This document shows, piece by piece, positions 13,595-20,000 of a DNA stretch of 20,000 nucleotides. The stretch comes from an uncultured virus (IMG/VR IMGVR_UViG_3300021420_000025) (lineage: Duplodnaviria > Heunggongvirae > Uroviricota > Caudoviricetes), in the IMG/VR virus record IMGVR_UViG_3300021420_000025; one strand, written 5' to 3'. The notes beneath the pieces are model-generated. The model saw only the letters and a program-made list of their open reading frames with translations. It ran no database searches and had not been told where the DNA came from. The translations under genes were made by a program, and so were the position numbers. Numbering within the stretch: the first letter of the stretch is position 1; every line of letters starts with the position of its first letter.

Positions 13595-15043
13595 TCAAGG
13601 AATGGGCGCGATCGACGCCCCCCCAGGGATCCATGCGGTGTGGCCGAACCCCGACCCGCTCTGCGCGGCCGCCAAGTTCGTCGCGTTGATCGTGATGCCG
13701 CACGCGGTCGGCAACGAGGTCGCGCCGACGTCCGAAGCTCCCCCGTTGCAAGCCGTCGTGCCGCAATTAAGATAGATGGGTCCAGTCAGCGCGAAGGTCG
13801 CCGCGATGGTCGCGGGGTTTTGATAGCCCAAGTGGCCGTTGCCCCACATGTCGAACGAGCCGGGCCCCCACAACGAATGGATCTGGCTCAAGATGGAATG
13901 CCAACTGTTCCAAGCGCCGTTGCCTTGCAAAATGGTGGTCGTGTCCAAGTACACACCGCCGAACTGCAAGTTGTTGATCCACGGTTCGCCCTCGGAGGTG
14001 CAAGCGGTGCCCGACGCGTCTCCCCCACCGGTGATGATCGTGTCGTAGTCAATGTTGGCGCTGTTCAGAAACGTGAGGTTTTGCGAGTTGCCCGACGTGA
14101 CGCCAATTTGACCACCGACAATGGCGAAGAGCCCGGCGAAGTTGCTGTTTGTAGGCGGGCCGCCGATGAGGCCCGAGGCGATATAGTCATTGATGAGATA
14201 CGCCCGCGTGAGGCCGCCCATCGACTGAAACCGAAGAAGGGGCGCGGCGTACGCTTCGATCATCGCGAACTGATCGTCCACGAGCACTTCATCGAGCCGC
14301 GAGGAGCTCGCGAGGCCCAATTGATAGACCGTCACGGAGCCGGTGAAGGCCGAGGACGTCTTGGCTTGCACGCTTCGGAGGTCGGCGAAATAGGCGCTCG
14401 CGGGCTGAGGGTAATCCGCGTAGACGTCGCCGTTGGCGATCGTGGGCGCCGTGAACGACGGAAAGCTGACGAGCGGCACGGTCATTGGGGCGAGCGGAGC
14501 GTCGAGCGCCCACGTGTTGCCGCTTACGTTGCGGAAGACATGAAAGCGCGCGGCCGTCGTCGTGTCGACCACGAGGTCGCCCACGGCCACACCGGCGCAG
14601 AGCGTGGCGTTCCACAATTGGGGCGTCGCGCGATTCATCGCGACAACCCCACTGAGAGCCCCTGTGCAACGCGCGCTTGGGAGAGGCGTTGTAAGCACAA
14701 GGGTGGCTCCACTCTCGAGCGCGGGGTGCGAATAACCCATGTCGTTCGCGTTGCCCGCAGAGAGCCACGTGATGACCGTCGTTTGAAGAAGCCGTGGGCA
14801 ATTCATCGGGGCGCCTCGGCAAACCCACCGCACGTCGGTTAGCTGATGCAGCGTCGCGAGCGGCCCTTGAGCCCCGCTGCCACACGTGCCGACTGTTCCA
14901 TTGTTCGTGTCGCTCGCGCACCCGCTGGCGTTTTGGGGATCGATGTACCATGCCGGGACGCTCCAACTGGGCGGCAACACCGGCGACTGGCCGAGGGCTA
15001 CGTTGGGTAGGAGTAACAACAGGAGCGAAAGGAGTCGCTTCAT
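13595..15043 (-). CDS. signal-peptide-bearing DUF1565/beta-helix-like protein, paralogous to the fibre central domain
   Basis: MKRLLSLLLLLLPNVALG signal-like N-terminus; WYIDPQNASGCASDTNNG...PLATL motif; colinear similarity to 17539-18756. Confidence 0.75.
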   Translation of the reverse strand: MKRLLSLLLLLLPNVALGQSPVLPPSWSVPAWYIDPQNASGCASDTNNGTVGTCGSGAQGPLATLHQLTDVRWVCRGAPMNCPRLLQTTVITWLSAGNANDMGYSHPALESGATLVLTTPLPSARCTGALSGVVAMNRATPQLWNATLCAGVAVGDLVVDTTTAARFHVFRNVSGNTWALDAPLAPMTVPLVSFPSFTAPTIANGDVYADYPQPASAYFADLRSVQAKTSSAFTGSVTVYQLGLASSSRLDEVLVDDQFAMIEAYAAPLLRFQSMGGLTRAYLINDYIASGLIGGPPTNSNFAGLFAIVGGQIGVTSGNSQNLTFLNSANIDYDTIITGGGDASGTACTSEGEPWINNLQFGGVYLDTTTILQGNGAWNSWHSILSQIHSLWGPGSFDMWGNGHLGYQNPATIAATFALTGPIYLNCGTTACNGGASDVGATSLPTACGITINATNLAAAQSGSGFGHTAWIPGGASIAPIP

Positions 15044-15046
15044 AGA

Positions 15047-18400: not shown

Positions 18401-20000
18401 TTGTTGACGATCAGTTGAGAGGCGGTCAGCCCCGCTTGCAGGTTCGCTGCAAGCAATTGGCCCGCCGCGCGGTTCTTCGCGACGAGACCGGAGAGCGTCC
18501 CGGTCGCCGTGGGCGCGGGAAGCGCGCAGAAGATGAACGAGGCGCCCGAACCGATGGGCGTATAAATGATCGGATCGGTCGCGTCGGGCTGCGCATTGAG
18601 AAATTCAATGCTCGTGGTCTGATTCAGCGCCGGGCTGTACGTGCCCCACAAGCTCGCGAGCTTTGCGTACGTCTTGAGAGGAGATCCGACCGTCGTGCCC
18701 GTGTTCGAATCCGAACCGAACGCGGGATCGATAAACCATGTCGAGACGCTCCAACTGCCGTTGGCGGGCGGCGTGACGTTGCCGGCCGCGGCGCCGGTCG
18801 CACCGACGGGGCCTGTCGCGCCGCTTGGGCCCGTCGCGCCAGCAGGCCCCGTGCCGCCGCCGAGCGGTCCTGTCGCTCCTTGCGGTCCAGTGAAGCCCGG
18901 ACCCGTCGCGCCGCTTGGGCCCGTGGCTCCACTCGGGCCGGTCGTGCCGGCGGGTCCTGTGACGCCCTGCGCGCCCCCACTGGGGCCGGTCGACCCTTGC
19001 GGCCCGGTCGGCCCGACAGGACCGCCGGACGGGCCGGTGGCGCCCGTCGGTCCGGTGAAGGCCGGCCCGGTCGCCCCGGTCGGGCCGGTGGGCCCTTGAA
19101 TGCCTGTGGCTCCGAGGGTCCCTGTAGCCCCGGTCGGGCCGGTTGCGCCGATCACCCCTGTGGCGCCCGTTTGCCCGGTAGGACCTGTGCTTCCAACAGG
19201 CCCCGTGGCGCCGGTCGTTCCGGTGGCGCCGGTGGTCCCTGTAGCGCCGAGATTGCCCTGAGGACCCGTCGCGCCTGTGGGCCCGGTGTTTCCGGTCGGG
19301 CCTGTGAATGCCGGGCCGGTCGCCCCGGTGGGCCCCGTATTTCCGGTGGGGCCGGTTGCGCCTGTGGGCCCCGTGCTGCCTTGCGGCCCGCCGCTTGGCC
19401 CCGTGGCCCCCGTGGGGCCGGTCGGACCGACGGGTCCCCCACTGGGTCCTGTCGGTCCGAGAGGGCCCGTAAACGCGGGTCCCGTGGCTCCGATCGTACC
19501 TGTGGCCCCAAGGGGGCCGGTCGCGCCAAGCGGTCCGGTAGCTCCCTGAATACCGGTGGGCCCCACGGGCCCGGTCGCGCCGATGCTTCCTGTGACCGAG
19601 GGACCCGTCGCGCCTTGCGGCCCGGTGGGGCCGACAACGCCTGTGGGGCCAATCGGTCCACCGCTTGGTCCTGTGGGGCCCAATGGACCCGTGGGGCCTA
19701 TCGGGCCACCACTCGGCCCGGTCTGTCCTTGCGGTCCCGTGAATCCCGGACCGGTGGGGCCGAGAGGCCCGATTGGACCGGTATTGCCGGTCTGCCCCGT
19801 GATGCCCACCGCGCCCGTGGCGCCGGCGGGTCCTGTCGCCCCTTGAATGCCGGTCGCGCCGATCGCGCCCGTGGCGCCGGTCGGTCCGGTGAAGGACACG
19901 CCGGTGGCGCCCGCGGCTCCCGTGGCGCCCGGGAGTCCTGCAGGTCCAGTCGCACCGGTCGGTCCTCCGGAGGGACCCGTAGCGGCCGCCGGTCCTGTGG
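15478..20000 (-). CDS. giant collagen-like fibre/spike protein, 5'-partial (>1500 aa)
   Basis: Frame stays open past the GTG at 19899 to the window edge (...[18 protein letters not shown]...). G-X-T collagen ~18790-20000, central domain ~17539-18756, and two Gly-rich domains (~16530-17360, ~15478-16350) joined by short collagen linkers. Confidence 0.9.

Follow-up and report, generated by a model that had tools for sequence, protein, structure and literature searches.

The operon and its leader-bearing gene

The window analysed here is a stretch of 20,000 nucleotides (nt) from an uncultured tailed virus of the Caudoviricetes (IMG/VR record IMGVR_UViG_3300021420_000025), the parent contig of which is 145,079 bp on record. 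For nt 13000-16000, two soil-metagenome DNA runs contain the stretch, one of them possibly its source, and no RNA run was listed. At its right end, a minus-strand operon carries four genes in the order fibre, 135-amino-acid (aa) protein, P0001 and probable lysin. P0001, the subject of this work, is a 482-aa protein (13595-15043, minus; GC content at third codon positions 0.79) delimited from the list of open reading frames and its translation. It is a paralogue of the central domain of the fibre (residues about 408-823; 17530-18777, minus; located by BLASTP, hmmsearch and AlphaFold2), and its first 18 residues (14990-15043, minus) read as a predicted Sec signal peptide. P0001 thus appears to combine two known kinds of protein, the tailspike-type β-helix and the phage-encoded exported envelope factor. 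The collagen-like tail-fibre gene lies at 15478->19998 (minus), with its 5' end beyond the window and 1506 residues visible in translation; the 135-aa gene lies at 15047-15454 (minus, from translation); and the last gene (13037-13594, minus) encodes P0020, a 185-aa GH73/FlgJ-type glucosaminidase-like probable lysin (Pfam PF01832). The intergenic gaps along the operon are 23, 3 and 0 nt, the ATG of the lysin-like gene directly abutting the stop codon of P0001. Promoter-like and terminator-like sites scanned around the operon were not above those of shuffled sequence.

The paralogy had been noticed by eye in a sequence-only reading of this DNA. BLASTP of P0001 residues 22-479 against fibre residues 408-820 gave one significant, colinear alignment (108 bits, E 8e-29), in which 153 of 473 positions are identical (32%) and 16% are gaps; all five motif pairs quoted in that reading fall within it, and the paralogy is confirmed. 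Local hmmsearch located the fibre domain at residues 414-823, between one G-X-Y run that ends at residue 404 and another that starts at residue 830. The fibre contains 15 such runs of at least 6 triplets, and its parts follow in the order collagen, β-helix, collagen, Gly-rich domain, collagen, Gly-rich domain. Its best PHROG match was phrog_6320 (E 2.5e-56), and 10 more matching families are labelled 'tail'; the matches to Pfam Collagen (17 bits, cut-off 27.2 bits) and to the NCBIfam collagen-like adhesin models were below their cut-offs. The long G-X-Y runs and the tail-fibre family matches together identify it as a collagen-like tail fibre. For the fibre copy of the domain, though not for P0001, a trimer is suggested by the collagen on either side. 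Downstream, fibre residues about 877-1506 (15478-17400, minus) form two Gly-rich domains, each after a short collagen run. Both open with a similar Thr-Phe-Thr-Val-Pro-x-Gly-Val-Thr stretch, and the first one matches phrog_863 ('tail fiber assembly') with E 4.1e-5.

The N-terminus of P0001, MKRLLSLLLLLLPNVALGQSPV, has the shape of a signal peptide, as the same reading had supposed. Lys2 and Arg3 are followed by a nine-residue hydrophobic core (residues 4-12) and Pro13, and the c-region places Ala16 at -3 and Gly18 at -1, ahead of Gln19. Judged by eye and with a script, the n-, h- and c-regions of a Sec (signal peptidase I) peptide are all present, and the predicted cleavage site lies after Gly18. 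The core has a mean Kyte-Doolittle hydropathy of 3.29, which by chance would be reached in about 0.10-0.16% of random 20-residue stretches of the gene's own composition. A hydrophobic core of 9-10 residues is too short for a stable membrane anchor. There is no lipobox in P0001, and residues 1-41 contain no Cys. The ATG sits 3 nt beyond the stop codon of the 135-aa gene, with a Shine-Dalgarno (SD)-like GGTGATC just upstream. The nearest relative, P0004, has a differing leader with an A-x-A site and an identical QSPVLP mature start, and P0006 likewise bears a leader; the leader is therefore kept among the orthologues though its sequence drifts.

The automatic gene call for the same gene, P0003 (403 aa; 13595-14806, minus), starts at Met80. 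This start would delete residues 22-79, which are aligned with the fibre and contain the most conserved columns of the family (W32, D35, P36, D45 and N47), and the call is therefore judged to be wrong. As an annotation rule, the leader of such genes should be kept untrimmed, unlike in the automatic call here. Several other apparently leaderless family members (for example P0005, P0065, P0093 and P0126) also seem to be truncated gene calls.

AlphaFold2 models were built for P0001 from a 133-row alignment and for the fibre domain from a 74-row alignment, and both were compared with 48,161 chains using VIA-align. The P0001 model has a predicted local distance difference test score (pLDDT) of 90.8 and a predicted template-modelling score (pTM) of 0.90; the values for the fibre domain are 88.2 and 0.88. 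Both copies are modelled as right-handed β-helices, and the earlier guess of a pectin-lyase-like fold was right for both. The best 50 entries for P0001 have Z-scores of 10.8-14.9, and the recognised ones (lyases, pectin methylesterases, tailspikes, pertactin and EtpA) are β-helix proteins. The top match is the alginate lyase 6kfn (Z 14.9, root-mean-square deviation 3.5, 236 residues aligned), followed by the hydrolase 5mqp (Z 14.6), EtpA (Z 14.4), the Fri1 tailspike depolymerase 6c72 (Z 14.1) and pertactin (Z 13.9); pectin methylesterases, pectate lyases and many tailspikes are also in the list. The fibre domain reached Z-scores of up to 16.3, and its matches include the periplasmic capsule depolymerase VexL (6fi2, Z 12.2), AlgG (Z 12.5) and the lyase RbmB (9ozd, Z 14.3). 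Foldseek against the PDB was weak for P0001, with no row at E<=0.001; the best E was 1.9e-3, to the AP22 gp54 tailspike, with template-modelling (TM) scores of 0.17-0.24.

Five residues (D101, D206, N285, D334 and D458) are at least 90% conserved across the 133 rows, the fibre copy included, which would fit a shared active or binding groove. P0001 has no N-terminal particle-binding domain; the homology to the fibre and the first model strand begin at residues 22-31, right after the leader. In BFVD, the best match to P0001 was A0A3G5A013 (E 1.2e-15, TMq 0.61), a 'collagen triple helix repeat containing protein' of the metagenomic giant virus Harvfovirus. Either the combination of collagen with this β-helix recurs outside the tailed phages, or that record contains phage-like DNA.

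Family, cysteines and genomic surroundings

P0001 matched no Pfam family at E<=0.1, no PHROG at E<=0.01 and no NCBIfam model at E<=0.01, and the family profile (A3) matched no PDB sequence at E<=1. By sequence, the protein is thus outside the described β-helix and tailspike families (Pfam Beta_helix and Pectate_lyase_3, PHROG tailspikes). A word-indexed protein search with P0001 gave 12 proteins, one being the window's own, and a HMMER search with a 13-row profile gave, at E<=0.001, at least 1826 cluster representatives (clustered at 50% identity), of which 1048 reached E<=1e-30. Almost all of these clusters are from uncultured soil and peat viruses. No close relative of P0001 or of the lysin P0020 was present among the viral contig collection, and the phage record collection gave no match by DNA, nor by tblastn of P0001. 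The nearest Atlas clusters to the family are 100% viruses (score 0.90, a lead-level score). The sole genome match is a 7-kb contig of a metagenome-assembled genome (MAG) labelled Myxococcales, and this same MAG is the one genome with a family match at E<=1e-10 among 301 sampled genomes of that phylum. Moreover, the family neighbours in four loci (L001, L011, L017 and L020) are phage genes. These observations indicate that the family is viral and not a cellular core family.

For the study of leaders, P0001 and the fibre domain were aligned with 131 homologues of <=620 aa (133 rows); 23 longer proteins were omitted, as were P0003, the truncated call of the gene itself, and two long proteins, P0016 and P0017. 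A row was scored as leader-bearing if a 9-residue stretch among its first 50 residues had a mean hydropathy of >=2.2 and the domain was preceded by at least 15 residues. A leader is present in 95 of the 133 rows, so that the leader is retained in most of the family as well as in the nearest relative, and 66 of these 95 rows have a lipobox-like motif behind the hydrophobic core (permissive regular expression). Among the 38 rows below threshold, 11 were set aside as probable truncated or borderline calls (P0005, P0043, P0044, P0065, P0093, P0110, P0112, P0118, P0122, P0126 and P0159). Of the 27 clean rows that then count as leaderless, one is the fibre domain, and others form a class in which the cap motif comes right at the start.

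Two variant architectures were also seen. Four giant leaderless proteins of 2568-3243 aa (P0021, P0022, P0023 and P0025) contain 6-7 tandem copies of the β-helix domain, and three of them begin directly with the cap motif. Many lipoprotein-type homologues (P0007, P0008, P0009, P0031 and others) have a long Pro/Ala-rich linker from the lipobox to the β-helix. The linker is followed by a small conserved Cys motif (Asp-x-Arg-Thr ... Ala-Gln-Ala-Ala-Cys ... Trp-x-Cys) that P0001 does not have.

The leader is linked to cysteines. Mature P0001 contains 10, compared with 3 in the fibre domain and 4 in all 1506 visible fibre residues, and the excess proposed in the sequence-only reading was thus borne out. 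Three paired columns account for the link: Cys occurs at columns 42/54 in 59/58 of the 95 leader rows and in 0/0 of the 27 leaderless rows, at columns 75/82 in 47/48 and 0/1, and at columns 432/448 in 80/80 and 2/0, respectively. One or more of the pairs are complete in 87 of the 95 leader rows and in none of the 27 clean leaderless rows; P0001 has all three. Such pairs would fit folding in an oxidising compartment outside the cytoplasm.

In the phylogenetic tree, P0001 belongs to a starred clade of four rows, the others being P0004 (52% identical to it), P0005 and P0006, and the fibre domain groups with P0088, P0106 and P0077 at identities of at most 39%. Since the two copies are placed in separate clades, they are old paralogues and not the products of a recent duplication. 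The picture of a fibre domain whose stalk was swapped for a leader therefore fails, because P0001 clades with the leader-bearing P0004-P0006 and the fibre domain elsewhere.

Family members were also found in other settings. The 62-kb viral contig L001 encodes major head, sheath and tape-measure proteins. Its homologue, P0015, has a lipobox and lies between unannotated tail genes and a baseplate-like gene, overlapping the upstream gene by 4 nt; it is the sole family member on L001, with no virion copy in the 62 kb available. On the complete 60-kb viral contig L002, the family is represented only by a 560-aa protein without a leader, and the contig also encodes an integrase. Paralogues commonly occur in tandem: L003/L019 has three lipoproteins; L016 has three genes, of which two encode lipoprotein leaders and the third has an uncertain start; L013/L014 has two leader-bearing genes; L010 has two genes; L022 has three; and L020 has two leaderless ones. 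The pairs in L013 and L014, metagenome contigs of different records, are nearly identical: one protein has 487 aa and a lipobox, the other 517 aa and an N-terminal anchor. They are close to an NAD-dependent epimerase and an integrase. The three tandem lipoprotein paralogues of L003 (676-7066) and L019 (1051-14410) are those of the Myxococcales-MAG contig. The N-terminal part of the second matches phrog_10356 ('virion structural protein'), cysteine-rich repeats occur in a long C-terminal extension of the third, and in L019 a fourth large gene (1648 aa) without a match to the domain follows. The family was not found on other contigs of this 6.1-Mb MAG, and the contig may be misbinned phage DNA.

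The remainder of the window is phage-like in content, with GC contents ranging from 0.60 to 0.75. Family scans of the window proteins identified a Sak4-like AAA_24 protein (1732-2565, minus), a sigma factor (2934-3689, minus), a VapE-type helicase/primase (5870-7447, minus) and a PD-(D/E)XK nuclease (9590-10750, plus). No holin was identified within the window. The sole other membrane-type protein seen there is a 101-aa protein (9215-9520, plus) without a family match, whose strongly hydrophobic N-terminus has a mean hydropathy of 2.59 over 15 residues.

The lysin-like P0020 matched PF01832 with E 6.6e-6 and 27.2 bits, under the 30.2-bit cut-off; PF01832 is also its precomputed Pfam entry in the protein collection, and PDB FlgJ (5dn5) was matched with E 0.0028. 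It has no N-terminal leader. Its final ~35 residues are rich in Gly, Ala and Val, and its peak-hydrophobicity 15-residue window starts at residue ~164 with a mean of only 1.6; this C-terminal end may be a membrane tether. The 135-aa protein matched no family in Pfam, PHROG or NCBIfam. Kinship with the 135-aa baseplate-like protein of L001 was considered and rejected (BLASTP E 0.72). One homologue of the 135-aa protein of the window was found, P0162 (56% identity), and the lysin has a homologue, P0163, at 70% identity. Since P0162, P0163 and the P0001 relative P0004 are each on a 7755-bp contig from the same source, conserved synteny of the 135-aa gene, P0001 and the lysin is suggested in that source.

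Proposed role and alternatives

The account favoured here, held tentatively and with somewhat less than even confidence, is that P0001 is a late exported, disulfide-braced protein that cleaves or binds glycans and acts on the surface or matrix glycan of the host before lysis. It would be made late, co-transcribed with the fibre, the 135-aa protein and the GH73-like lysin, and exported by the host Sec system, with signal peptidase I cutting after Gly18. The mature protein would fold in the oxidising envelope as a right-handed β-helix braced by disulfides, and would cleave, or at least bind, a polysaccharide. It would act on a glycan at the surface or in the matrix of the infected cell, one of the class that the fibre module handles too. 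By the time of lysis, neither progeny nor superinfecting particles would then be trapped by the cell and its debris, and the matrix around the cell would have been loosened. The analysis shows the homology, the fold, the form of the leader, the leaders and leader-linked cysteines across the family and the tight packing of the operon; actual export, disulfides, catalysis, substrate and benefit are inferred. Taken together, the form of the leader, the fact that the family retains it, the cysteines linked to it and the tight operon are explained most economically by export. That the target is a surface or matrix glycan is suggested by the fold and by the kinship with the fibre module, and a role in the last phase of the cycle by the position of the gene in a late operon, directly next to the lysin.

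Several observations weigh against this account. Both enzymes and non-catalytic adhesins such as pertactin and EtpA have the β-helix fold, which therefore fits a catalytic and a non-catalytic protein alike. The known exclusion proteins are early, whereas the P0001 gene is in a late operon. The leader and the cysteines go together mostly because of shared clade membership: 22 of 25 leaderless rows form one clade (FastTree), and the leader state changes at least nine times on that tree, or six times if only starred branches are counted. Of the only six independent contrasts, about 3.4 had cysteines changing in step with the leader, 0 had them changing against it and 2.6 had no difference in cysteines (median sign-test p 0.25). 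Cysteine richness alone is no proof of export either, since disulfide networks also occur in virions built in the cytoplasm, as described for phage Milano in passages of PMC10811340. Moreover, the pair of fibre and secreted paralogue was not found to be kept in relatives. Among the loci examined, a fibre-borne and an exported-type copy are combined only in the window, so that the pairing appears not to be a conserved design. The position of P0015 in the baseplate block of L001 would also suit a structural role.

The alternative that survives best, though unlikely in itself, is that P0001 masks a receptor: it would bind the glycan or envelope structure recognised by the fibre without cutting it, and would serve superinfection exclusion or prevent readsorption, a job like that of the T5 protein Llp, here done with a copy of a fibre module. 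The homology to the fibre module speaks for it, as do the export signal, the lipobox-like motifs of most leader-bearing homologues (as in exclusion lipoproteins), the matches to the secreted adhesins EtpA and pertactin, and the location of the gene near the fibre gene, much as llp adjoins the receptor-binding gene of T5. However, a common ligand specificity is doubtful for two copies that are 32% identical and belong to different clades, and the Gly-rich C-terminal domains, rather than the β-helix, may be the receptor-binding tips of the fibre. L001, too, has the exported form with no virion copy in the 62 kb available. Exclusion proteins act early (PMC9586334), whereas the P0001 gene belongs to a late operon, and no separate promoter was detected for it.

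It is rather unlikely that P0001 is a virion part matured in the periplasm, exported for oxidative folding and joined to tails or fibres when lysis mixes the compartments, which would give a phage with two β-helix modules. Its gene follows the fibre in a structural operon, P0015 is placed between tail and baseplate genes with its 4-nt overlap upstream, and the leader of P0001 is predicted to be cleavable and non-lipid, which would leave the protein soluble. Against these stands the β-helix cap (residues 24-31), which is almost at the mature start, so that no N-terminal docking domain is visible. The 66 of 95 leader rows with a lipobox-like motif would be lipid-anchored, which is hard to square with joining a particle, and no published precedent for tailed phages was found in the open-access literature.

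The third possibility, quite an unlikely one, is a moron that serves the host through lysogenic conversion, that is, an exported or surface β-helix adhesin or matrix-remodelling enzyme unrelated to phage adsorption or release. Exported morons beside tail genes are well known, such as lom and bor of lambda. Tandem arrays of lipoprotein paralogues exist in the present family, some fused to LamG-like and cysteine-rich modules (L003/L019), and some family loci are near integrases (L013, L002). The P0001 gene, however, is tightly packed within a late operon, only 3 and 0 nt from its neighbours, and neither a promoter nor a terminator belonging to it was detected; family scans of the window showed replication and late genes and no integrase; and one family match in 301 sampled genomes of the phylum gives no evidence of stable lysogenic carriage.

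It is very unlikely that the leader is not used, with P0001 being a second cytoplasmic spike, or a depolymerase freed only by lysis, because translation starts at the GTG of Val22 or the TTG of Leu23 or because the leader is non-functional. These possible leaderless starts lie exactly at the onset of homology, a point that also counts against export; 27 clean family rows are leaderless and start directly with the cap motif, and the automatic call P0003 skipped the leader as well. But the 63-nt spacer before Val22 would then encode a three-region signal peptide by chance (~0.001), in frame from an ATG 3 nt past a stop codon, and no SD motif was seen ahead of Val22 or Leu23. P0004 and P0006 have leaders, with the mature start of P0004 identical, and all three leader-linked Cys pairs are in P0001. 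An o-spanin, considered because the gene lies beside a lysin, was rejected on the size and fold of P0001 and its want of a lipobox.

Returning to the favoured account of a late exported glycan-acting protein, it may extend to the family. About three quarters of the members would be exported or lipid-anchored, with disulfide cysteines specific to the leader-bearing forms. It is possible, though on balance doubtful, that it is routine for many tailed phages to deliver a tailspike-like module that acts on glycans to the envelope of the dying host, as a receptor-destroying or receptor-masking arm of the lytic cycle. If true, the logic would be comparable to that of viral neuraminidase, and in the boldest form, host-recognition proteins would be matured in the periplasm before meeting the particle. 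Phage depolymerases are usually seen as virion parts or as surplus enzyme freed at lysis, and the exported phage proteins known are lysins, spanins and small exclusion factors. A large phage family of mostly Sec- or lipoprotein-targeted, tailspike-type β-helices would amount to a new class of phage proteins that act on the envelope. Such a family would also bear on how progeny avoid re-adsorption to debris and matrix in soil biofilms, and could be a source of probably disulfide-stable modules for binding or cutting glycans. The window is a handy test case, as a fibre-borne and an exported-type module occur in one operon.

Comparison with known systems

No published description of a Sec-exported paralogue of a phage fibre or tailspike module was found in the open-access literature, and P0001 was therefore compared with systems that share some of its features. 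The β-helix depolymerases of tailspikes and fibres (Acinetobacter phage Fri1 gp49, 6c72; CBA120 TSP2, 5w6p/6w4q; Klebsiella phage fibres, 7xy1) resemble P0001 in predicted fold (Z 12.8-14.1, 231-269 residues aligned), and the fibre domain is similar. Like P0001, they are phage-encoded, next to or within the fibre gene. They have an N-terminal particle-binding domain, whereas P0001 has a secretion leader and no membership at the sequence level. Any catalysis by P0001 is conjectural.

The Llp of T5 is a small early lipoprotein that is unrelated to the receptor-binding protein of the phage and jams FhuA from the periplasm; its gene is linked to the receptor-binding gene. It is thought to prevent superinfection and adsorption to lysed fragments, according to passages of PMC9586334. 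Exclusion lipoproteins of the Llp/Cor type are phage-encoded and exported to the envelope, as is predicted for P0001, and their purpose is like the one proposed for P0001; most leader-bearing homologues of P0001 also share lipobox-like motifs with them. P0001 itself differs from this type by having no lipobox, a mature length of 464 aa, homology to a fibre module and a place in a late operon, from which its timing is judged. Spackle of T4 is an early periplasmic superinfection-exclusion protein that inhibits the gp5 lysozyme, as stated in part of PMC7677548. It is, as P0001 is predicted to be, a phage protein sent to the periplasm, where the same source has it acting on the infection machinery of the incoming phage; unlike P0001, it has no homology to a fibre. 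To our knowledge, Spackle also has no β-helix.

Late phage proteins that use the Sec system have a precedent in the endolysin Lys44 of the Oenococcus phage fOg44, described in passages of PMC6116005 as a late protein with a bona fide signal peptide and export by the host Sec system. Lys44 and the signal-arrest-release (SAR) endolysins are peptidoglycan hydrolases, whereas P0001, though its gene abuts a lysin gene, is a predicted β-helix without a lysin domain, and it is the neighbouring GH73-like lysin that has no leader.

The secreted β-helix adhesins (pertactin, 2iou; EtpA, 8vba/8cpk; HMW1, 2odl) match P0001 with Z 11.3-14.4, and they are exported and bind rather than cut. They are passengers of autotransporter or two-partner secretion with export domains of their own, whereas P0001 has only a Sec leader. 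VexL (6fi2), AlgG (4nk8) and RbmB (9ozd) are exported β-helix enzymes whose substrates, cut or modified in the envelope, are polymers of the capsule or matrix. Besides their matches to the fibre domain given above, RbmB matches P0001 with Z 12.8. Unlike P0001, these enzymes are cellular housekeeping parts of polysaccharide pathways and are not phage-borne, and no sequence similarity was detected. By analogy, this class is the closest counterpart to the action proposed for P0001.

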